A stretch of DNA of 39,782 nt from a virus (Duplodnaviria > Heunggongvirae > Uroviricota > Caudoviricetes), in the IMG/VR virus record IMGVR_UViG_2687453623_000005, one strand, 5' to 3'. Below are positions 8,982 to 38,489 of this stretch, piece by piece (the first letter of the stretch is position 1; each line of letters starts with the position of its first letter). The position numbers and the translations under genes were made by a program. The notes under the pieces were generated by a model. The model had not been told where the DNA came from. It was given only the letters and a program-made list of their open reading frames with translations, and ran no database searches.

Positions 8982-9941
8982 ATGAAAATTTGTATCGACG
9001 ACGGCTCCACCAACATCAAGCTGGCATGGACTGAGAATGGCGAACGCCGCAACGCCATCAGCCCGAACAGCTTCAAGTCGGAATGGTCTGCGCCGTTCGG
9101 TGGCATGCAGCCCGCGAACTACATGCTTGATGGCGTGCGCTATGGTTTTGATCCGGTTAGCGATCGCTTTGTCCAGACGACCGACACGCAATACCAGTAC
9201 AGCGATGTGAATGTAATCGCCATTCATCACGCGCTGGTCAAATCAGGCATCACGCCACAGGAGGTGGATGTGGTTGTCACCCTGCCACTGAGCGAGTATT
9301 TCGACACAAACGCACAGCCGGACATGGCCAACATCAACCGCAAAAAAGCGAACGTTATGCGCCCGGTGGAATACCAGAACGGCGAAGCATTCACTATCCG
9401 TAACGTGCGGGTTATGCCTGAATCCATTCCGGCTGGCTTTAAAGCACTGGCTGACATGAGTCCGTTTGAATCCCTGCTGATTGTGGATTTAGGCGGAACC
9501 ACGCTGGATGTGGCAAAGGTTCAAGGGCAACTGGCAGGTATCAGCCAGGTGTTTTGCGATCCACACGTAGGCGTTTCCCTGATGGCCGATGCCGTACTGT
9601 CGGTGATGGCCACTAACGGTATGCGCACCAGTCACCACATCGCCAATACCATTATCGAACATCGCCATGATGAAGCCTGGCTGCGCCAGCACATCCACAA
9701 TGACGCGCATTACGCCAGCCTGATGGCGGTTATTCGTGAAAAGGAAGAAACACTGAAACAACGCGTGATCCGCGCGCTGGCGGTTTTTTCGGGTTACGGG
9801 CGGGTGATGGTTGTCGGTGGAGGGGCGGAGATTGTGGCACCCGCTATCCGCGAAGTCTGCGGAGTTAATGCGACTTTCATCGCGGACGGGGTGCCACAGT
9901 TTGCTCTGGTTAATGGGCTGTACGCAATGGACAAGGAGTAA
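8982..9941 (+). CDS. parM: ParM/StbA-like actin-type segregation ATPase, 319 aa
   Basis: N-terminus MKICIDDGSTNIKLAW and later IVDLGGTTLD and VVGGGAE motifs align with plasmid R1 ParM as I recall it. Confidence 0.8.
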   Translation: MKICIDDGSTNIKLAWTENGERRNAISPNSFKSEWSAPFGGMQPANYMLDGVRYGFDPVSDRFVQTTDTQYQYSDVNVIAIHHALVKSGITPQEVDVVVTLPLSEYFDTNAQPDMANINRKKANVMRPVEYQNGEAFTIRNVRVMPESIPAGFKALADMSPFESLLIVDLGGTTLDVAKVQGQLAGISQVFCDPHVGVSLMADAVLSVMATNGMRTSHHIANTIIEHRHDEAWLRQHIHNDAHYASLMAVIREKEETLKQRVIRALAVFSGYGRVMVVGGGAEIVAPAIREVCGVNATFIADGVPQFALVNGLYAMDKE

Positions 9942-9945
9942 ACCA

Positions 9946-10260
9946 ATGACGACACCAACCAGACGGATAAGTTTCTATCTGAAGCCCGCCGCCGTCAAGA
10001 GTGAACAGGAGGCGTGCAATTACCTCGATAGCCTGCCAGCCTCCGAACGCAGCCGCGCGCAACGCGCGGCCTTTCTGGCTGGGCTAGCGCTCATAAAGCG
10101 CAACCCAGCATTTGCCTACTGGATGGCCGAATGGCCAGAGGACAACCTCCCCTTCAATACCGTTAGCATCAAGGAAACATACCAGGATAATCAGCCTAGC
10201 GGAGTTGAATGCAATTTTTATAAAATAAAAAAGAATATTCAGACCTTATTCCCAGAATAA
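9946..10260 (+). CDS. parR: ParR-like centromere-binding adaptor, 104 aa
   Basis: N-terminal segment ISFYLKPAAV...LDSLPASERSRAQRAAFLAGLAL resembles R1 ParR. ATG at 9946 with AGGAG ribosome-binding site. Confidence 0.7.
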   Translation: MTTPTRRISFYLKPAAVKSEQEACNYLDSLPASERSRAQRAAFLAGLALIKRNPAFAYWMAEWPEDNLPFNTVSIKETYQDNQPSGVECNFYKIKKNIQTLFPE

Positions 10261-20598: not shown

Positions 20599-20740
20599 CC
20601 CACCCACATGGGGAAACCTCGGAATATGGGGCGACCGCCTTCTGGATGCACTGGAAACCTGTAACGCGGATAAACGGGCCATTGCTGAACTGGATAAGAG
20701 AATAGCCGAACTGACACACCAGACGGGAGTAACACAATGA
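20459..20740 (+). CDS. Outer-membrane lipoprotein spanin (LysC/Rz1-like), embedded in and extending past the i-spanin gene
   Basis: Lipobox LLTGC after a signal peptide; proline-rich segment PVTPPPFPDPP. Confidence 0.65.
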   Translation: MNAPTLCLTLVLLTGCAGTQNAPGPAPSVRLIPQTLTMPVTPPPFPDPPTWGNLGIWGDRLLDALETCNADKRAIAELDKRIAELTHQTGVTQ

Positions 20741-22614
20741 CCAGTAAGAACTTTGCACTGATTACAGCCATGACACAGGCTGAACTGACTCAAAAGGTGA
20801 ATGAACATCTTGCGAAAGGGTGGCATCTTCAGGGGGAGACGCGGGTTGCCTACGAACCCGGCACCCCGTGGTATCTAATGCAGGCAATGGTGGCCGATGG
20901 CACTACAGACATCTCACCTGATTCCCCCCAGCACGGCAGCGTGCCGGAGTGGTATTACGTGGTGGTACTTGCTGGTCAATCCAATGCCATGTCATATGGT
21001 GAGGGAATGCCGCTGCCGGATTCTTACGATGCGCCCCACCCACGCATTAAGCAACTGGCCCGTCGCAACACAGTGACTCCCGGTGGTAAAGCATGCGCAT
21101 TTAACGACATCATTCCGGCAGACCACTGCCTGCATGATGTTCAGGATATGAGCGCACTGAATCACCCGAATGCAGACCTGAGCAAAGGGCAGTATGGCTG
21201 TGTCGGACAGGGCTTGCATATTGCCAAACGCCTGTTGCCTTACATTCCACAGAATGCCGGGATTTTACTGGTTCCATGCTGTCGTGGTGGTTCGGCATTC
21301 ACCCAGGGCGCGGAGGGGACATTCAGCGAGTCCACAGGAGCCAGTCAGGATTCGGCTCGCTGGGGTGTGGGTAAACCTTTATATCAGGACCTGATTTTGC
21401 GCACGAAGGCCGCATTGCAGAAAAACCCAAAAAACATGCTGCTGGCCGTATGCTGGATGCAGGGCGAATTTGACATGAGCGCCGCTACGTACTCACAGCA
21501 ACCTCCGCTGTTTACGGCCATGCTGAAACAGTTTCGTGCGGACATTACCGAGTTTAACACGCAGTGTCATGGAGGCAGAGCGGCAAGTGTGCCATGGATT
21601 TGTGGTGACACGACGTATTACTGGAAAAACACCTACGGCACGCAGTACGACACCATTTACGGGGCGTACAAAAACAGGGAGAGCGACAACGTTTTCTTTG
21701 TGCCGTTCCTGACCGATGGTAGTGGCAACAATACCTCCACCAACGCACCAACGGAAGATCCGGATGCTGCAAGTGAGGGATATTACGGTTCGGCATCCCG
21801 AACGAACAAAAACTGGGTATCATCAAATCGCCAGACGCATTTCAGCTCATGGGCGCGTCGTGGCATTATTCCCGATCGTATGGCAACCGCTATTCTGAAC
21901 GTAGCCGGTCGCACCTTAGCCTTCATCAGTGGTAAGGCACCGGAAATCAAACCCTCGCCCGGCGGCGACACGCCATCGGGGCCGTCTGAAGATGCATCCG
22001 TACGCACAATCTCCCTGTTGCCGACAGCCGGAGATGCTGCTGCGCAGGGCTGGAGCATTAAGAATGGCGGAATTCAGTTGTCAGAGGGTGTATTTAAGAT
22101 CACCAAGCAGAGCAATAAAGCCTGGTCCCTGACGCGCCCGGTGGATGACGCAGTCTCCCTGCTGACACGGGGTGGCAGACTGAGCTGTAAGTTTCGACTG
22201 TCAGGCGCACTGACCAACAATCAGTTCGGTCTGGGAATTTATCTGTATACCGATGTAGCGTTACCTGACGTCGTGGCGATGACCGGGACTGGTAACCCGT
22301 TCCTGATGTCGTTCTTCACCCAGACCACAGACGGCAAACTGAATCTGATGCATCACAAGAAAGCAGGAAACACAAAGTTGGGCGAGTTCGGGAATTACAG
22401 TAACGACTGGCAGACGCTGGAGCTGGTGTTCACCGCCGGCAGTGCCACGGTTACTCCGAAACTGAATGGAGTGGCTGGCCCGGCATTCCAGGTCATAAAA
22501 GACAGTCTGACACTGGGGCTGAATGCGCTGACGTTAACTGATATCACTAAAAATGCCGCGTACGGCGTCGATATCGGCAGCCTGGTGCTGGAAATCAATA
22601 ATCCCGCAGCATAA
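20737..22614 (+). CDS. DUF1737 + SASA-domain sialate O-acetylesterase (NanS-p-like moron), 625 aa
   Basis: VVVLAGQSNAMSYGEG matches the GQSNM esterase motif. N-terminal 50 aa resemble DUF1737. Confidence 0.75.
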   Translation: MTSKNFALITAMTQAELTQKVNEHLAKGWHLQGETRVAYEPGTPWYLMQAMVADGTTDISPDSPQHGSVPEWYYVVVLAGQSNAMSYGEGMPLPDSYDAPHPRIKQLARRNTVTPGGKACAFNDIIPADHCLHDVQDMSALNHPNADLSKGQYGCVGQGLHIAKRLLPYIPQNAGILLVPCCRGGSAFTQGAEGTFSESTGASQDSARWGVGKPLYQDLILRTKAALQKNPKNMLLAVCWMQGEFDMSAATYSQQPPLFTAMLKQFRADITEFNTQCHGGRAASVPWICGDTTYYWKNTYGTQYDTIYGAYKNRESDNVFFVPFLTDGSGNNTSTNAPTEDPDAASEGYYGSASRTNKNWVSSNRQTHFSSWARRGIIPDRMATAILNVAGRTLAFISGKAPEIKPSPGGDTPSGPSEDASVRTISLLPTAGDAAAQGWSIKNGGIQLSEGVFKITKQSNKAWSLTRPVDDAVSLLTRGGRLSCKFRLSGALTNNQFGLGIYLYTDVALPDVVAMTGTGNPFLMSFFTQTTDGKLNLMHHKKAGNTKLGEFGNYSNDWQTLELVFTAGSATVTPKLNGVAGPAFQVIKDSLTLGLNALTLTDITKNAAYGVDIGSLVLEINNPAA

Positions 22615-28071: not shown

Positions 28072-28604
28072 ATGATGCACTTAAAAAACATTACTGCTGG
28101 CAACCCTAAAACAAAAGAGCAATACCAGCTAACAAAGCAATTTAACATCAAATGGCTTTATTCAGCTGATGGAAAAAACTGGTATGAGGAACAAAAGAAT
28201 TTCCAGCCAGACACTTTGAAAATGGTCTATGACCATAACGGCGTTATTATTTGTATTGAAAAGGATGTTTCAGCAATTAATCCGGAAGGCGCAAGCGTCG
28301 TTGAATTACCTGATATTACAGCAAATCGCCGGGCTGATATTTCGGGGAAATGGATGTTCAAAGATGGCGTAGTGGTAAAGCGAACTTATACCGAGGAAGA
28401 GCAGAGCAACAAGCGGAAAATGAAAAGCAGAGCCTGTTGCAACTTGTCAGGGATAAAACTCAGCTATGGGACTCACAGCTACGGCTGGGCATCATTTCCG
28501 ACGAGAATAAACAAAAATTAACCGAGTGGATGCTCTATGCGCAGAAAGTCGAATCCACAGACACCTCCAGCCTGCCAGTAACATTTCCCGAACAACCTGA
28601 ATGA
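28072..28604 (+). CDS. G: Tail fibre assembly protein (Tfa/gpG-like), interrupted by an apparent -1 frameshift near 28395..28410
   Basis: Track ORFs 28072..28521 and 28350..28604 together reproduce a full Tfa, judged by comparison with the minus-strand copy. Confidence 0.7.
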
Positions 28605-28632
28605 GACAAGGCCCGATAACGGGCCTTAATTT

Positions 28633-29159
28633 TTATTCAGGCTTTTGTGGCCATTCAGGATTTGCCGTATCCACACGGTTGACCAGAACACTGTAGCGTT
28701 CCCATGCTTCCAGTCGTGTGCGTTCCTCGTCTGTTGCCATATTCAGCCTGACAGCGCGTTCCAGCGGCTGGATGACTGATTCAGCTTCGGAAAGCAATGC
28801 GGCCTTTTGTGATTCGGCCTGTTGTTGCTGTTCGTCAGCCGTATAAATCCGTTTAACCACAGCTCCGTCCTTAAACATCCACTTACCGGAATCATCGGTC
28901 CGACGATTGGCCGTTATATCGGGAACCTCGACGACGCTAAAACCTTCGGGATTAAGCGTGGAGGCATCTCTGGTGATGGCGACAATAATATTATTTTCAT
29001 CGTAAACAATCTTTATGGTGTCTGGCTGAAAGTTTTTCACTTCCTCATACCAGTTTTTTCCGTCCTCAGAGTAAAGCCAGATAACTCCGTGTTTCTTTGT
29101 TAACTCATACTGTTCAGTGTTTTAGCATTACCCGCTTTTATGTTCTTTAAGTGCATCAT
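28633..29159 (-). pseudogene. Alternative tail fibre assembly gene (tfa'), frameshifted near its 5' end
   Basis: Reverse strand begins [14 protein letters not shown], then a stop; the out-of-frame continuation matches the plus-strand Tfa. Confidence 0.6.
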
Positions 29160-29990
29160 ATTAATCGCTCTTTTACAGTGCATTATATACTTTGAACGGT
29201 CTGTAATAAACACCCGCTATATTATCGCAGAGTTAGACCCTGTATCCTGAACATTAATACCAGACAATACATGACTGAAGGCACTGGAAATTCCATGTTC
29301 GCCAGTTGTTCACTCCATAATATTGCTGTAACCAAGTCGAACATCTTTCACATAACGGAATCAAACCGTAATCGAGATTAACACGCCCGTAATATGTCTA
29401 TACGAATGCCGGGACAGCGCATTCCATGTACTGAACAGCATGAACAGTACCGCCAAGAGCGAATACCTGTAATACAACCTGAGTTCACCATTCATTGTAC
29501 CAGCAGATAACGCAGTGCACCAACATCTCCTGCTGAAGGTTTTCTGGTGGTGGTGTAAAATTCGGACCAGTCGCTTTCAAAACCATAACCATCACGGGCT
29601 GAACGATAAAAAATACCGCCATTTTTATAATTAATCCGAAACTGAGCTGCAGGACAACTTCCGTCTCCATATAAAAATGAATAATTAACGTTGATGCACC
29701 ACCAATATTTGCGTTATAGGCTCCGCTACTCCAGTTCCATCCAACTGCTTTATCACCATTAACGGTGCTTCCTGTTTTCCTAAGGCAAACGCACCAACAT
29801 GACTTGCTTTTAATGTGATATCGGAGGAACCATCAAAAGCCACATTGCTTATTTTCCTGGCAGTTTTTAATTTTGCAGCTGTAGAAGCATTGCCGGATAG
29901 TTCACCAGAAAGGCCACCGCTGAATGTTTGTCGATTAGTCCAGGTATTCGCTGTACTGAGTAACGGTATTTTCTCCCCGCTTGTGCCGAG
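29160..29990 (-). pseudogene. Alternative tail-fibre C-terminal variable region (H'), disrupted by at least two frameshifts
   Basis: Reverse-strand translation matches the plus-strand H C-terminus in three different frames. Only a 61-aa ORF (29485..29670) survives. Confidence 0.5.
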
Positions 29991-30070
29991 TTCTCGTAAA
30001 CCGAGGTTTTAAATAATGGCCGTTTCTGGCCTGCATGGCATGATTTGCGCTTTTGGACGGGAGATTCAGT

Positions 30071-30670
30071 GTGCTGATTGGCTATGTAAGGGTATCAACA
30101 AATGACCAGAATACAGACCTGCAACGAAACGCTCTTGTTTGTGCAGGATGTGAACAAATATTTGAAGATAAATTAAGCGGGACAAAGACAGACCGACCGG
30201 GATTAAAACGCGCTTTAAAGCGCCTTCAAAAAGGTGACACGCTGGTTGTCTGGAAACTGGATCGCCTCGGGCGAAGCATGAAACATCTGATTTCTCTCGT
30301 CGGGGAACTACGGGAGCGAGGGATTAATTTTCGCAGTCTGACCGACAGCATAGACACATCTTCTCCAATGGGGCGTTTTTTCTTCCACGTGATGGGTGCC
30401 CTGGCTGAAATGGAACGTGAATTAATTGTTGAACGTACACTGGCCGGGCTGGCGGCAGCGCGCGCAAGGGGGCGCACAGGCGGACGTCGACCGAAGCTGA
30501 CAAAAGAACAGCATGAGCAAATAGCAAGGCTAATCAAAAACGGGCACGACAGAAAACAACTGGCAATAATTTACGGCATTGGCACATCGACGATTTATCG
30601 TTATCACCCTGTAGGCGATATACAGACTGAAGAAACAACCGGGCAGACTCAGGAAAATGAAAACCGCTAA
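30071..30670 (+). CDS. Serine recombinase, DNA invertase of the Gin/Pin/Cin/Hin family (GTG at 30071; track ORF starts at TTG 30053)
   Basis: LIGYVRVSTNDQNTDLQRNAL...LVVWKLDRLGRSMKHL is near-identical to Mu Gin and e14 Pin as recalled. Confidence 0.95.
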   Translation: MLIGYVRVSTNDQNTDLQRNALVCAGCEQIFEDKLSGTKTDRPGLKRALKRLQKGDTLVVWKLDRLGRSMKHLISLVGELRERGINFRSLTDSIDTSSPMGRFFFHVMGALAEMERELIVERTLAGLAAARARGRTGGRRPKLTKEQHEQIARLIKNGHDRKQLAIIYGIGTSTIYRYHPVGDIQTEETTGQTQENENR

Positions 30671-30690
30671 TCTGACCATTAGCGGTTTTT
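30662..30690 (+). terminator. Intrinsic terminator after the invertase
   Basis: Hairpin AACCGCTAAT-N6-ATTAGCGGTT followed by a T-run. Confidence 0.55.
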
Positions 30691-30698
30691 GTGTTAAA

Positions 30699-31193
30699 TC
30701 AGAACAGCCCTTTAACTGAACTGGCCGCGCTGTTAAGAGATGATGTCACCTTATCTTTGAAGCCGGACAGCATATCACTGAACGATGAGGATTGCAGGCG
30801 CTCCCGCAAATCCTCATCACAGCGTTCAAGAGTCAGTGAAAATTCTATCTTTTTCGCCTTACCGTAGCGATCAAACTCGGAGCGGGTCGTATTCGTTTCA
30901 GTCAGGACATACATGCCGTAAATCTGCCCGACGCCATCAATCAAAGGCCAGGGTCGTCCTGTATACGCCTGCGTGGTCAGCAGCGACAGCGACACTTCGC
31001 CACCTGTAATTTCAGGATAAAGCACACCAGAAAGAACGATGCGATCATCACCTGCACCGATATACTGCCAGCTTGCTGAACGGTTAACGCGTTCATTTTT
31101 CACATGCCGCCAGCTTTTGTTTTGCTGTAACTGCTGATGCGGCAGCGTGCGCAGCTCAAAAACAAACATGCCGTAGATCATCATCATGGCCAT
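30699..31193 (-). CDS. U: Tail protein, P2 gpU-like
   Basis: Size and position downstream of the tape measure gene. Confidence 0.8.
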   Translation of the reverse strand: MAMMMIYGMFVFELRTLPHQQLQQNKSWRHVKNERVNRSASWQYIGAGDDRIVLSGVLYPEITGGEVSLSLLTTQAYTGRPWPLIDGVGQIYGMYVLTETNTTRSEFDRYGKAKKIEFSLTLERCDEDLRERLQSSSFSDMLSGFKDKVTSSLNSAASSVKGLF

Positions 31194-36284: not shown

Positions 36285-36441
36285 AGCTTCAGCCCCTTGT
36301 ATCCGTTAAATGATTCGGCAACAATCATCACCCACCACGCGCGTAATCTCACCCCTGCGCCGTTCTCCCGCCACGGCGACAACAAAAAGCAGTAACCCCC
36401 TCCGCACGCACATGCGACCATGCCGCACAGGGAGGGAGCAG

Positions 36442-37551
36442 ATGACCGACACCACCATGCAATTGCTCAGTCAGGGCACAGACCCCGTGAAAATGCCGGA
36501 TTTTGATATTCTCGCGGAGGGTAAAACGCTGTCAGGCGTGGCAGAGCGCCTGATGAGCCTGTCACTGACCGACAACCGGGGATTTGAGGCGGACCAGCTC
36601 ACCATCACGCTGGATGATGCGGATGGTCAGTTGCAGCTACCGCCACGGGGCGCGCGCCTGACGGTTCTCATTGGCTGGAAAGGAGAACCGCTGACAGAAA
36701 AAGGCACTTACATTGTTGATGAAATCGCTCACGAAGGACCGCCGGACAGGCTGACTGTTTCAGCCAGAAGCGCAGATTTTCGGGATGAATTTAACGTTAA
36801 ACGTGAGGTGTCCTGGCATGATGTGACCGTTGAGCGTGTGGTATCCGCCATCGCTCATCGGTATGGTCTGAAACCGCAAATCAGCGAAATGCTGATGGAT
36901 ATCGAAATCGACCACGCCGACCAGACCGAAGAAAGCGACATGTCCTTCCTTACGCGCATGGCGGAAATGCTGGGCGCAATCACCACGGTAAAAAGCGGTA
37001 ATCTGTTATTCATCATGCCCGGCGGTGGCGTGAACGCACAGGGCCAGCCGTTGCCATCGTTTGCCATCACACGCAGCAGCGGCGATCGCCATCAGTTCCG
37101 CATTGCTGACCGCGAAGCGTATACGGGGGTACGCGCTTACTGGCTTGATCTTAATTACGGGAAAAAGAAAAAAGTCAGCGTGAAACGCCGTAAACCGCCA
37201 AAACCCAAAAAGGAGAAAAGCAGCAGCCGCGAAGGTGATTATATGGAAGGCGCGGAAGGCAATGTGTTTGTGTTACGCAAGACTTATCAGAACGAGCAGG
37301 CAGCAAGACGCGCAGCGGCGGCAAAGTGGCAGCAACTACAACGCGGAGCCGCATCATTCTCCATCACGCTGGCGCGTGGACGTGCAGAACTCTACCCCGA
37401 AATGCATGGCACGGTAACAGGATTTAAAAGCGAGATTGATAATCAGGACTGGATCATTGCAAAAGCCGAGCACACCATTGATAACAGCGGTTTTACCACG
37501 CAGCTTGAGCTTGAGGCAAAAATCCCGGAATGGATAGCGGAAACAGAGTGA
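36442..37551 (+). CDS. D: Tail protein/late control protein, P2 gpD-like
   Basis: ATG at 36442 after GGAGGGA; size and position next to ogr. Confidence 0.85.
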   Translation: MTDTTMQLLSQGTDPVKMPDFDILAEGKTLSGVAERLMSLSLTDNRGFEADQLTITLDDADGQLQLPPRGARLTVLIGWKGEPLTEKGTYIVDEIAHEGPPDRLTVSARSADFRDEFNVKREVSWHDVTVERVVSAIAHRYGLKPQISEMLMDIEIDHADQTEESDMSFLTRMAEMLGAITTVKSGNLLFIMPGGGVNAQGQPLPSFAITRSSGDRHQFRIADREAYTGVRAYWLDLNYGKKKKVSVKRRKPPKPKKEKSSSREGDYMEGAEGNVFVLRKTYQNEQAARRAAAAKWQQLQRGAASFSITLARGRAELYPEMHGTVTGFKSEIDNQDWIIAKAEHTIDNSGFTTQLELEAKIPEWIAETE

Positions 37552-37591: not shown

Positions 37592-37852
37592 ATGTTCCGT
37601 TGTCCGCTTTGTGGCGCATCTGCCCGTATCCGCACCAGTCGTCCGGAAAATGATTCAAACACCGTGCGGCAAAAGTATTACCAGTGTAACAATCTGGAAT
37701 GCGGCGTATGCTTCTCAACACTGGAAGCTTTCCATAAATTCACATCAAAACACGCCTCCGGCGTTCACTCTTCAGAAGGTATCCCGTGGCATGATCTGCC
37801 AGCTTCACACAGGGGAAACAATCAGATGAGTTTGCCTTTATCTCAGAATTAA
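37592..37852 (+). CDS. ogr: Ogr/Delta-type zinc-finger late transcription activator
   Basis: MFRCPLCGASARIRTSR...YYQCNNLECGVCF matches the Cys4 motif of P2 Ogr. Confidence 0.9.
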   Translation: MFRCPLCGASARIRTSRPENDSNTVRQKYYQCNNLECGVCFSTLEAFHKFTSKHASGVHSSEGIPWHDLPASHRGNNQMSLPLSQN

Positions 37853-37940
37853 CAGGCAGAATTGCCGGAGTAACAAAAAAGCGATAGATTACGTGCGGGT
37901 GCCTTTCGGCTGATGGTCGGAGGGAATACCCGAAGGCCAG

Positions 37941-38126
37941 ATGTGGAAAGGCCCCGAGTCAACTTTAACGTTAACCCGAGGCCCTAACCATCTACCCTCA
38001 GCAAGTGATAGGTTAGCGCCTCCCCGAAAAAGGAGCAAGCGCTATGTCGCAAAAATCGCTTACGGCCATCACATTCTGCGTGACGGCAATCCTCATCATC
38101 TGGATGCTGCACGGTTCGCTGTGTGA
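37941..38126 (+). CDS. mok-like overlapping leader reading frame
   Basis: Track ORF begins upstream of the hok-like gene and overlaps it in another frame, as in hok/mok/sok loci. Confidence 0.35.
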   Translation: MWKGPESTLTLTRGPNHLPSASDRLAPPRKRSKRYVAKIAYGHHILRDGNPHHLDAARFAV

Positions 38127-38184
38127 AATACGGATGAGTTTCTGGGGAGCGGAGTTTGCGGCGTTCTTACAGTGTAAGCAGTAA
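38044..38184 (+). CDS. Hok/Gef-family type I toxin, 46 aa (MSQKSLTAITFCVTAILIIWMLHGSLCEIRMSFWGAEFAAFLQCKQ)
   Basis: N-terminal TM helix followed by SLCEIR and EFAAF, the conserved Hok core. AGGAG ribosome-binding site 8 nt upstream. Confidence 0.7.
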   Translation: MSQKSLTAITFCVTAILIIWMLHGSLCEIRMSFWGAEFAAFLQCKQ

Positions 38185-38277
38185 GGAAACCGCGACGGGG
38201 AAGGCAACTTCCCCGTCAATCGGTTGCCAGGGTAAAGGTCGAAAAGGCACCCTATTTCCAGTTGACGTGAACAACAA

Positions 38278-38310
38278 GCCCGCAGCGTAAAAACTGCGGG
38301 TTTTCTTTTT
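38278..38310 (+). terminator. Intrinsic terminator downstream of the hok-like gene
   Basis: Hairpin CCCGCAG-N8-CTGCGGG followed by TTTTCTTTTT. Confidence 0.6.
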
Positions 38311-38344
38311 GGTTCCCTCACTCATGAGGACACCAAAAAACAAA

Positions 38345-38373
38345 GCCCACAGCATAGAAGCTGTGGGCTTTTT
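38345..38373. terminator. Bidirectional hairpin terminator; probable serS terminator on the minus strand
   Basis: Hairpin GCCCACAGC-N6-GCTGTGGGC with an A-run before and a T-run after. Confidence 0.5.
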
Positions 38374-38489
38374 GCATTCAAAGATGGACGTTATATGGAC
38401 ACTTAAAAATAAAATCCATTTATTTTCAAATGATTAAACCTCTACTTAAAGCGCCCGCAGGCGCTTTTTAGATTCAGAAAAATTGGGTA

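Follow-up and report, generated by a model that had tools for sequence, protein, structure and literature searches.

The stretch between ogr and serS near the right end of the window (the whole DNA analysed, 39,782 nucleotides) very probably holds a type I toxin-antitoxin module of the hok/sok family, located as phage cargo at the right-hand end of a P2-like (P88/Xuanwuvirus-type) prophage and closely related to hokW-sokW. It is an ordinary, already annotated hok/sok-type module and a known system, and its only mildly new point is an apparent independence from mok. The homology, phage origin, sequence elements, predicted structures and conservation behind this assignment are direct results of the analysis. 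The interval 37853-38310, described in the initial annotation as a hok/mok-like toxin locus, fits the functional unit well, running from the hok -35 box (37862) to the end of the terminator T-run (38310).

The toxin gene is the following feature.

38044-38184, + strand: hok toxin gene, 46 aa (RefSeq WP_000078916.1; Pfam and PHROG matches)

Its product is MSQKSLTAITFCVTAILIIWMLHGSLCEIRMSFWGAEFAAFLQCKQ. The protein has the Hok/Gef layout (about 50 aa, an N-terminal transmembrane helix, and L-C-E-x-R and E-x-A-A-F motifs), with a Kyte-Doolittle hydropathy maximum of 2.44 at residues 6-22, SLCEIR at residues 25-30 and EFAAF at residues 37-41. Pfam HOK_GEF (PF01848) matched it with 29.9 bits (gathering score 22, E 4e-7), residues 7-44 being aligned to profile positions 5-42 of 42, and PHROG 251 matched it with 80.6 bits (E 1e-22). 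When the protein is aligned with K-12 HokB and HokC, L26, E28, E37 and A39 are the same in all three. Judged from sequence, the match to the Hok family is not a product of chance. The initial annotation had reported a 46-aa ORF with a SLCEIR...EFAAF core after a transmembrane helix; this ORF is where it was placed, and the Hok-family type I toxin locus proposed around it is borne out by the matches to Pfam HOK_GEF, PHROG 251 and Rfam RF01794. RefSeq already labels the gene as a Hok/Gef family protein, and the identical 46-aa protein occurs on at least 1000 contigs. One source names it 'protein HokA', but HokA orthology was rejected at 34 bits against the cut-off of 89 for the NCBIfam HokA equivalog NF007290. 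The NCBIfam Hok subfamily NF007279 was likewise not reached (21.6 bits against 73), and a PDB sequence search gave no match.

At the nucleotide level, the locus is 91-94% identical to loci of phages P88, Chuche, P884B11, 500465-2 and Shae_phiSM and 83% identical to those of Stx phages, the hok locus of VT2-Sakai (Sp5) being identical to that of 933W. The Hok protein shares 74% of its amino acids with the ORF of the hokW locus of 933W and 24% with K-12 HokB and HokC. By sequence, the locus belongs to the hokW-sokW clade of Stx phages. [quoted passage not shown] 2021, PMC8621323).

The predicted hok transcript and its elements are arranged as follows.

37862-37890, + strand: predicted hok promoter, read from the sequence, with -35 TTGCCG at 37862-37867, a 17-bp spacer and -10 TAGATT at 37885-37890
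37897-38308, + strand: predicted full-length hok mRNA, about 412 nt (RF01794 match start, K-12 leader alignment and terminator)
37897-37911, + strand: tac, the 5' end, partner of fbi in full-length RNA and of ucb in truncated RNA (MFE and RNAalifold)
37943-37955, + strand: ucb equivalent, the tac partner after removal of fbi (folds of 3'-truncated RNAs)
37978-38022, + strand: antisense-target hairpin of the truncated mRNA (truncated folds; third hairpin of the Rfam model)
38030-38035, + strand: hok Shine-Dalgarno AAGGAG, 8 nt ahead of the ATG (read from the sequence)
38193-38218, + strand: stable 3' stem-loop, likely the protective 3' end of the truncated mRNA (MFE and consensus folds)
38219-38234, + strand: 3'-UTR segment pairing with the Sok-target region 37993-38009 in full-length RNA (MFE and consensus folds)
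38237-38252, + strand: fbi, the tac partner (MFE, consensus fold and conservation)
38276-38310, + strand: intrinsic terminator of the hok mRNA, with a 10-bp stem at 38276-38303 followed by TTTTCTTTTT (terminator scan)

Both promoters of the locus, that of hok and that of the antisense RNA described below, were placed by homology and conservation; a consensus promoter scan found nothing at its threshold, the hok promoter having 8 and the sok promoter 6 of the 12 consensus positions. Whatever the upstream context among the relatives, a TA(G/A)A(T/A)T box stands 6 nt ahead of a conserved GGGTGCC, and K-12 hokC has the corresponding box, TATAAT, at the same distance. The 5' end of the mRNA was set by the start of the RF01794 match at 37897 together with the alignment to the K-12 hokB and hokC leaders, and the 3' end by the terminator. 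The initial annotation had noticed this terminator just downstream of hok, and its stem and T-run were recovered; it is kept in most P2-like relatives, and homology between relatives stops a few nucleotides past fbi.

The full-length mRNA has a minimum free energy of -172.6 kcal/mol (z = -6.5 against shuffles), and in this fold nucleotides 1-15 (tac) pair with fbi. The tac-fbi pairing also closes the consensus structure that RNAalifold gives for 30 distinct relatives, where its 15 pairs are formed in 93.5% of cells and every change is wobble-compatible. Over both long-range helices, the paired cells amount to 88.5%, whereas slid controls reach 60% at most, and none of 500 shuffles attained the covariation score of these helices. 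In the helix of 38219-38234, four pairs are changed on both sides, including GA/TC to AG/CT in 933W, and in the stem-loop 38193-38218 two pairs carry compensatory double changes (GC to AU in 4 sequences; AU to CG or GC). This evidence is modest, as the relatives are close (mean column identity 91%) and the window sequence itself was the source of the structure tested. By analogy with R1, on which the role is based (PMC9841398), the stem-loop 38193-38218 likely protects the 3' end of the truncated mRNA.

In RNAs truncated at the 3' end (ends 38190-38238), nucleotides 1-14 paired with the ucb segment in all truncations tested, and the target hairpin appeared only in these truncated folds. At the base of this hairpin, GAGGC 37978-37982, the homologue of the mok Shine-Dalgarno, pairs with GCCUC 38018-38022 (dcb/anti-SD), and its loop, 37993-38006, carries the YUNR motif CUCA at 37997-38000, a motif that 39 of 40 distinct leaders retain. 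In the full-length and consensus folds, CUCC 38020-38023 pairs with the hok Shine-Dalgarno, which is mostly unpaired in the truncated folds. The helices of the truncated form (tac/ucb and target hairpin) are paired in 95.7% of cells, in columns that barely vary and give no covariation support; the ucb columns are nearly invariant (99.7% of cells paired). These elements of the R1 paradigm, tac/fbi end pairing and, after loss of fbi, the tac/ucb alternative with the target hairpin, are found in silico. R1 hok/sok (parB) shares the tac/fbi pairing, the tac/ucb alternative and the GAGG/dcb stem, as well as a cis-antisense RNA of about 60 nt, a protective 3' stem-loop and a small membrane toxin (PMC9841398).

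The initial annotation had identified no antisense RNA by eye. A candidate can nevertheless be located on the minus strand, with an invariant -10 box and ends aligned with those of sokB and sokC.

38010-38038, - strand: predicted sok promoter, with -35 TTGCTC at 38038-38033, a 17-bp spacer and -10 TAACCT at 38015-38010 (minus-strand reading)
37941-38002, - strand: predicted Sok-like antisense RNA, about 62 nt, 38002 to 37941 (calibrated on K-12 sokB and sokC)

The ends were calibrated by alignment with the annotated K-12 sokB and sokC. In the comparison with chromosomal hok loci that the initial annotation suggested, the leader aligns with those of hokB/mokB/sokB and hokC/mokC/sokC from the -10 box to the hok ATG, with the 5' ends of the Sok RNAs at the same alignment position. 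All 25 distinct leaders compared have the sok -10 box TAACCT unchanged, in contrast to its variable flanks, and the promoter aligns with the promoter region of annotated sokB (TAAGAT). The predicted Sok consists of a single-stranded 5' tail of about 10 nt, a 16-bp hairpin and UUUCC. The interval folds with -32.7 kcal/mol (z -5.1) on the minus strand against -17.3 on the plus strand, the hairpin being perfect on the minus strand only, by means of G-U pairs, and each of the 25 variants compared folds more stably on the minus strand. Per-sequence folds of both strands were used in place of column-wise covariation because the two hairpin types differ by indels. The hairpin is followed by UUUCC alone and no long U-run. 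The antisense part of the R1 paradigm (about 60 nt, its own promoter in the leader, a 5' tail and a terminal hairpin) is found in silico as well.

The mechanism outlined here is deduced by homology with R1 hok/sok and supported in silico; the transcript ends, the processing, the toxicity and the biological role are inferred. A hok mRNA of about 412 nt would start at 37897 and be closed and inert when nascent, its 5' tac being paired with fbi near the 3' end; in this form, the 3' UTR would mask the Sok-target region and the upstream CUCC would pair with the hok Shine-Dalgarno. Slow 3' trimming would remove fbi, whereupon tac would pair with ucb, and the freed GAGGC would capture GCCUC, forming the target hairpin and opening the hok ribosome-binding site. 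A short-lived antisense RNA of about 62 nt, transcribed from a constitutive promoter inside the leader, would bind the YUNR loop of the target hairpin through its single-stranded 5' tail, blocking expression and leading to cleavage of the duplex. When the supply of Sok ends, which may result from loss of the element, shut-off of host transcription by an infecting phage or prophage induction, the stable mRNA pool would be translated into a 46-aa inner-membrane toxin.

By analogy with hokW-sokW, the most likely role of the module is to aid lysis and phage release on induction, and an addiction or exclusion effect is possible. In the only experiment on the clade, hokW-sokW promoted the release of progeny of its own phage after induction (PMC8621323). 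A competing explanation keeps the same mechanism but makes defence of the lysogen (abortive infection) or prophage addiction the main role; it is a real alternative, though a doubtful one. Defence genes are common among the morons at prophage ends. On plasmids, hok/sok classically serves in post-segregational killing (PMC9841398), and a passage of PMC8621323, citing earlier work, relates that R1 hok/sok on a high-copy plasmid lowers T4 plating. Besides the progeny-release experiment, this explanation has against it that PADLOC models gave no match and that a single-copy integrated prophage is seldom lost by segregation.

The initial annotation also pointed to an overlapping upstream reading frame in the mok position. 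The frame exists, but its reading as mok did not hold.

37941-38126, + strand: 61-codon ORF overlapping the hok start, the 'mok' of the initial annotation (ORF list)

In R1, translation of mok up to the hok Shine-Dalgarno is mandatory (PMC9841398). If the locus worked exactly as R1, translation of Hok would need the ORF 37941-38126 as mok and Sok would block that ORF. This ORF runs through the hok Shine-Dalgarno and start, its relative frame being that of K-12 mokB; some ORF crosses the hok Shine-Dalgarno in that frame in 63 of 88 related loci, and the predicted Sok, extending to about 37941, would cover its ATG. However, the canonical mok start of hokB and hokC, an ATG 7-8 nt past GAGG, is absent here and in all relatives, with no ATG, GTG or TTG at the homologous place, so the mok part of the R1 paradigm (a frame starting just after GAGG and crossing the hok start) is missing. 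Since this start is essential in R1, the R1 mechanism cannot apply unchanged. The starts of the upstream ORF differ among relatives (-130 ATG, -103 ATG, -100 GTG and -28 GTG), and ATG 37941 lies within stems in both the full-length and the truncated folds (the tac/ucb stem), with only a weak GAAGG upstream. A TAA or TAG interrupts the frame in 25 of 88 loci (15 of 30 distinct leaders), and no start codon follows the stop in that frame; among these loci are phage P88 and the functional hokW of 933W/Sp5, where the native prophage produces HokW (PMC8621323). The stops arise at a polymorphic codon, TCA at 37998-38000 in the present locus with TAA as a natural allele in relatives, which is the UNR of the conserved YUNR loop; this indicates that selection acts on the RNA and not on the frame. 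The 61-aa product has no family match in Pfam, NCBIfam or PHROG. The ORF was therefore rejected as a conserved mok and is probably not a conserved gene, and a strictly R1-like working of the locus is unlikely.

It is tentatively suggested, with a chance approaching even, that the whole hokW-like clade of P2-like and Stx phages does without mok and that Hok translation is gated directly by partner exchange. In such a switch, CUCC 38020-38023 would mask the hok Shine-Dalgarno as long as the mRNA is closed; once the 3' end is trimmed, GAGGC, the former mok Shine-Dalgarno, would capture CUCC; and Sok would undo this capture and promote cleavage. The upstream ORFs would then be incidental, since whether their frame is open or closed depends on a codon that is the free 'UNR' of the U-turn loop determining Sok specificity. 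Neither 'mokW' nor hok in P2-like phages is discussed in the literature searched.

Whether the locus is a decaying, non-functional hok remnant was also considered. Several K-12 hok loci are inactivated, and the protein is short, with 46 aa compared to 50 in K-12 HokC and 49 in HokB. However, the 46-aa length is common to the functional hokW locus, and the ORF, both -10 boxes, tac, ucb, fbi and the Shine-Dalgarno are intact and near-invariant over 30-40 distinct relatives from different phages, which makes decay very improbable.

The position of the module relative to phage and host DNA is defined by three features.

37592-37852: ogr, flanking the hok locus (Pfam Ogr_Delta match)
38448-38467, no strand: attachment core (attR copy), which is the serS terminator hairpin (20-bp direct repeat)
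38490-39782, - strand: serS, flanking the hok locus

The locus lies at the prophage/host junction between ogr and serS, as had been noted. The 20-bp direct repeat of the attachment core sits at the int-dmsA side of the prophage in the EC958 record; the window itself begins inside int, which is why no direct repeat matching the right junction was found in it. The initial annotation had left two origins open, phage cargo or a host locus beside the attachment site, to be decided against E. coli genomes lacking the prophage. The empty serS-dmsA site, rebuilt by joining the flanks, is uninterrupted and without hok in 5077 of 5426 complete E. coli genomes, with 100% identity in several of them, and hok adjoins ogr in isolated P2-like phage genomes (P88, Chuche and others). 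The chance that hok, although the last gene ahead of serS and with chromosomal counterparts in E. coli K-12, is a host gene just beside the attachment site is negligible, and a host origin was rejected: the attachment core lies 260 bp past the hok stop, the empty site lacks hok, isolated phages carry it next to ogr, and the locus is found at many places in chromosomes as well as in Stx phages. Matches to it amount to about 2000 copies in 1574 E. coli genomes. Everything to the left of the attachment core, including hok, is phage DNA. The hok locus lies between the attachment repeats, is missing at the empty site and recurs in the genomes of free phages; it is cargo of a P2-like (Peduoviridae, P88/Xuanwuvirus-type) prophage of E. 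coli ST131 and not a host gene.

Among known systems, hokW-sokW (Sp5/933W) is similar in identity (83% over the mRNA), in its 46-codon ORF and in being prophage-borne; tac, ucb, GAGGCCCTAAC, the sok -10 box, the Shine-Dalgarno and fbi are all the same, and neither locus has a canonical mok start. In contrast, hokW-sokW follows lom in a lambdoid Stx phage, whereas the present locus follows ogr in a P2-like phage, and 933W has no terminator after fbi. The Sok 5' tail and the target loop differ between the two, and cross-repression is therefore unlikely. hokW is the experimentally tested member, whereas the present allele is known from sequence and predicted structures. R1 hok/sok differs in requiring mok, whose start codon just past GAGG has no equivalent here, and in being plasmid-borne with a role in post-segregational killing. 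A tblastn search of 72,556 plasmids with this Hok matched 34 records only, so R1-type hok genes fall below E 1e-3 in such a search. K-12 hokB and hokC differ in the low identity of their proteins and in their annotated mok genes, which start 7-8 nt past GAGG. The P88 product gp52 (NC_026014), annotated as 'MokW-like host killing / hok/gef family protein', is the same gene, placed after ogr at the genome end, with 91% nucleotide identity and one amino-acid difference; P88 has a TAA in the mok frame and another type of Sok hairpin and tail. Its annotation gives the CDS only, with no RNA features.

The importance of the locus beyond annotation is small, as the toxin is already named in RefSeq and the toxin-antitoxin function of the clade is published. 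Coordinates are gained for a predicted, unannotated Sok-like RNA and for candidate mRNA switch elements in the prophage of the pandemic ST131 lineage, and the phage-borne status of the module is settled. A phage clade with no canonical mok start suggests a simpler translational switch.

A scan of contigs gave 7 loci only, some of them labelled Planococcaceae, Vagococcus or Xanthomonas, with 72-98% identity. The oddly labelled loci are most likely contamination and served as sequence variants only. The Rfam RF01794 'sok' model really describes the hok-sense leader and misses the hokW-like clade at its gathering threshold. The present leader matches over the full length of the model (positions 1-157) with 42.8 bits (E 9e-8), below the gathering score of 59; P88 scores 47.9 and 933W 35.6 bits, whereas K-12 hokB and hokC reach 110-118 bits, likewise on the hok-sense strand.

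The locus at 37853-38310 is a known system: it is annotated here by RefSeq, and its clade (the hokW-like loci of P2-like, P88-type, and Stx phages) has a functional paper. [quoted passage not shown] From left to right, the last 2 kb of the window contain the end of a gpD-like P2-type gene, ogr, a 640-bp stretch without a long gene, and serS. The features are as follows.

37592-37852: ogr (Pfam Ogr_Delta, E 5e-14)
17 bp upstream of TAGATT, plus strand: predicted hok -35 box, TTGCCG
37885-37890, plus strand: predicted hok -10 box, TAGATT, six bases upstream of +1
37941-38126, plus strand: upstream overlapping ORF
38038-38033, minus strand: predicted sok -35 box, TTGCTC
38015-38010, minus strand: predicted sok -10 box, TAACCT, 17 bp after TTGCTC
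38044-38184, plus strand: hok toxin ORF, 46-aa peptide MSQKSLTAITFCVTAILIIWMLHGSLCEIRMSFWGAEFAAFLQCKQ
38193-38218: strong 3' stem-loop with compensatory changes among relatives
38276-38303: hok downstream terminator, followed by a T-run
38490-39782, minus strand: serS

The initial annotation had read a Hok-family ORF with a hydrophobic helix, an overlapping upstream ORF and a downstream terminator here. All were recovered, and the interval it gave suits the functional unit well. The Hok product scores 29.9 bits against Pfam HOK_GEF (gathering score 22), is covered in full by a PHROG 251 match (80.6 bits), and carries the helix at residues 6-22. The exact protein occurs on at least 1000 contigs as 'Hok/Gef family protein'. 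The Sok-like RNA, the switch elements, and the clade's lack of a canonical mok are missing from annotations.

Whether the locus is phage cargo or a host gene is settled for phage cargo. Many E. coli ST131 chromosomes, EC958 and JJ1886 among them, match the 941 bases around it at 100% identity; there the RefSeq order is 'ogr/Delta-like zinc finger family protein', 'Hok/Gef family protein', serS. The EC958 region is a P2-like prophage of about 38 kb between serS and dmsA; its integrase adjoins dmsA, and the first base of the window falls inside that integrase. The prophage is bounded by a 20-bp direct repeat, AAAGCGCCTGCGGGCGCTTT (window copy at 38448-38467), which is the serS terminator hairpin. 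The locus directly follows ogr in the isolated Escherichia phages P88, Chuche, 500465-2 and PhiR44_2, and in Xuanwuvirus P884B11 and Citrobacter phage Shae_phiSM, at 91-94% nucleotide identity to the window. About 180 Stx-converting phage records match it at about 83%. Of 5426 complete E. coli genomes, 1239 have it at 80% coverage or more; its positions are many, and a single genome can have as many as 8 matches. The initial annotation had also allowed a host locus and proposed a comparison with genomes lacking the prophage; the reconstructed empty site (the two outer prophage flanks joined, 493 bp) is without hok and is unbroken in 5077 of the 5426 genomes, several at 100% identity, which together with the ogr-adjoining copies in isolated phages makes the locus phage cargo.

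The P88 match to the window stops at 38310, with different sequence beyond. The segment between the hok terminator and the att core (38311-38447) holds a hairpin resembling a bidirectional terminator (38342-38371) and then A/T-rich DNA (38372-38447); together these probably form the attP arm of the phage. The window and EC958 are not identical across the whole window length. The gpD-like ORF (36310-37551) has 413 codons from its first ATG, and its RefSeq counterpart in the EC958 record (L001, 2139-2992) amounts to no more than a 'VgrG/Pvc8 family' CDS of 801 bp and a pseudogene fragment of 93 bp.

Rfam RF01794 matches the window over the whole model at 37897-38057 on the plus strand (42.8 bits, E 9e-8; gathering score 59). 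On K-12 records (L092, 502-654, minus; L093, 567-718, minus), it matches hokC (118 bits) and hokB (110 bits) on the strand of hok, opposite the annotated sokC and sokB. Though named 'sok antitoxin', the model therefore represents the hok leader, from +1 as far as the AUG of hok, which places the predicted hok +1 at 37897. Clade scores (window 42.8, P88 47.9, 933W 35.6 bits) are all below the gathering score, so standard annotation finds no RNA here. A TA(G/A)A(T/A)T box lies at the same distance from +1 in relatives from five different upstream contexts, and the K-12 hokC equivalent is TATAAT.

The predicted mRNA (37897-38308) folds at -172.6 kcal/mol (z -6.5), with nucleotides 1-15 (tac) paired to 38237-38252 (fbi). 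In R1, such tac/fbi pairing of the two ends is what marks the full-length hok mRNA as the inactive form (PMC9841398, the source of the tac, fbi, ucb, dcb and mok definitions). The RNAalifold consensus of 30 distinct full-length relatives is closed by the same helix, in which the only substitutions are C-to-U opposite G. A second long-range helix joins the Sok-target region (37993-38009) to the 3' UTR (38219-38234); in four of its pairs both partners have changed, among them those that turn GA/TC into AG/CT in 933W. The two helices together have 88.5% of cells paired versus at most 60% with slid partners, and none of 500 shuffles attained their covariation score. As evidence these controls are weak, given how close the sequences are and that the structure was taken from the window sequence; a mean column identity of 91% makes the covariation evidence modest. 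The open form was modelled by in silico deletion of fbi, with 3' ends at 38190-38238. Every truncated fold differs from the full-length one: 37943-37955 (the ucb equivalent) becomes the partner of the 5' end, a stem of GAGGC (37978-37982) and GCCUC (38018-38022) closes a hairpin with a 14-nt loop, and the hok Shine-Dalgarno (SD) AAGGAG (38030-38035) is freed from its partner CUCC, as in the R1 'open' form. The open-form helices are almost invariant among relatives and thus untestable by covariation. The 38193-38218 stem-loop is placed like the one that protects truncated R1 hok mRNA (PMC9841398). The hok RNA ends and the processing step are putative. Forty-nine of 80 IMG/VR proviral contigs (L016, L018, L022 and 46 others) end exactly 3 nt past the stop codon of hok; trimming proviruses back to their last called gene cuts off the 3' UTR with fbi and the terminator.

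No antisense RNA had been identified by eye. This is superseded by a good candidate, a Sok-like RNA predicted from its -10 box, the sokB and sokC ends, and a strand-specific fold. The -10 box is invariant in 25 of 25 distinct leader variants, even though the bases that follow it vary more than any others in the locus. In the K-12 alignment, the annotated 5' ends of sokB and sokC both fall on 38002 and the sokC 3' end on about 37941; the predicted RNA is therefore about 62 nt. In it, a free 5' tail of about 10 nt, GCUGAGGGUA, precedes a hairpin of 16 bp (-32.7 kcal/mol, z -5.1). Folded as plus strand, this interval reaches only -17.3 kcal/mol, because three G-U pairs turn into C-A mismatches. 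The minus strand is more stable in all 25 variants (mean -26.3 versus -19.7 kcal/mol), and the hairpin exists in two different versions with a common architecture. The tail is complementary to the target hairpin loop, which carries the YUNR motif CUCA at 37997-38000; YUNR is present in 39 of 40 distinct leaders. For R1 hok/sok, it has been described that the 5' tail of Sok recognises a U-turn loop. Mean column entropy puts the tail/target loop (37989-38009; 0.54) and its 3'-UTR partner (38219-38239; 0.42) among the segments of the locus that vary most; tac, ucb, GAGGCCCTAAC and the sok -10 box hardly vary (0-0.08). With this variable tail/loop and up to 8 matching places per genome, the antisense specificity of co-resident copies looks to be diversifying.

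The proposed reading of the upstream frame as mok is not supported. The ORF at 37941-38126 is real and has the same relative frame as K-12 mokB, but it is probably not a conserved mok. In K-12 hokB and hokC, GAGG(CC) is followed at 7-8 nt by an ATG, whereas no ATG, GTG or TTG follows GAGGCCCTAAC in any clade member aligned with the hokB/hokC leaders. Among 88 related loci (30 distinct leaders), an ORF crossing the hok SD begins with ATG at -130 in 49, with ATG at -103 (the window's type) in 11, and with GTG at -100 or -28 in 3; it is absent in any frame in the other 25, including P88 and 933W/Sp5. The window's ATG at 37941 lies within stems in both conformers. The codon at 37998-38000 (TCA, TTA, TTG, TTC, TAA or TAG) opens or closes the frame and coincides precisely with U-N-R in the YUNR motif of the loop, so what is visibly constrained is the RNA motif rather than the reading frame. 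R1 hok/sok loses its toxicity when stop codons are placed in mok upstream of hok (PMC9841398); Sp5 makes HokW (PMC8621323) from a locus without an ORF crossing the hok SD. Hok translation in the clade would likely be gated directly by SD/anti-SD exchange. No mention of the missing canonical mok was found in the literature searched, which is not proof of newness.

The Stx-phage copy is hokW-sokW, and VT2-Sakai (Sp5) is identical to 933W across the 431 bases compared. The 933W ORF, likewise 46 codons from its first ATG, is 74% identical in amino acids to the window's Hok, whereas K-12 HokB and HokC show only 24%. The P88 copy is annotated 'MokW-like host killing'. HokW arrests growth (Takada et al., PMC8621323), and sokW from its own promoter neutralises it with partial RNase III and Hfq dependence. 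After mitomycin C, sokW is lost and HokW appears in a RecA-dependent manner, and deletion of the hokW-sokW locus halves Sp5 release (PMC8621323). HokW is given as 51 aa in that paper versus 46 aa from the first ATG in 933W (L003, 1670-1810) and VT2-Sakai (L094); a TAA lies five codons upstream of this ORF, so a 51-aa HokW would need a non-canonical start.

Toxicity and role are presumed for the window's locus. By analogy with hokW-sokW, the best-supported of three roles would be membrane damage on prophage induction as the Sok supply falls, improving release. The terminator scan found none separating the stop codon of ogr (37852) from the hok promoter, so lytic read-through from ogr could add hok mRNA. 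Exclusion of other phages or an addiction effect is possible; PADLOC has no model for the locus.

Other features of the prophage were observed. At about 8876-10154 (plus strand), a ParM-type segregation ATPase and a 'plasmid partitioning/stability family protein' (EC958 annotation) are unusual cargo for an integrating phage. A 1.9-kb DUF6645 gene at about 20632-22509 (plus strand), between lysis and tail genes where P2 has no gene, may be a moron or defence gene. The layout at about 28500-30700 suggests an invertible segment for host range: a partial tail-fibre gene and two tail-fibre assembly genes in opposite orientations flank a recombinase-family (invertase-like) gene. Assemblies labelled Planococcaceae, Vagococcus and Xanthomonas pisi (L005, L006, L009) contain hok loci with 72-98% identity to the E. 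coli phage gene, most likely through enterobacterial contamination; two of these contigs are short (4.2 kb and 857 bp), and the Vagococcus contig is 226 kb.
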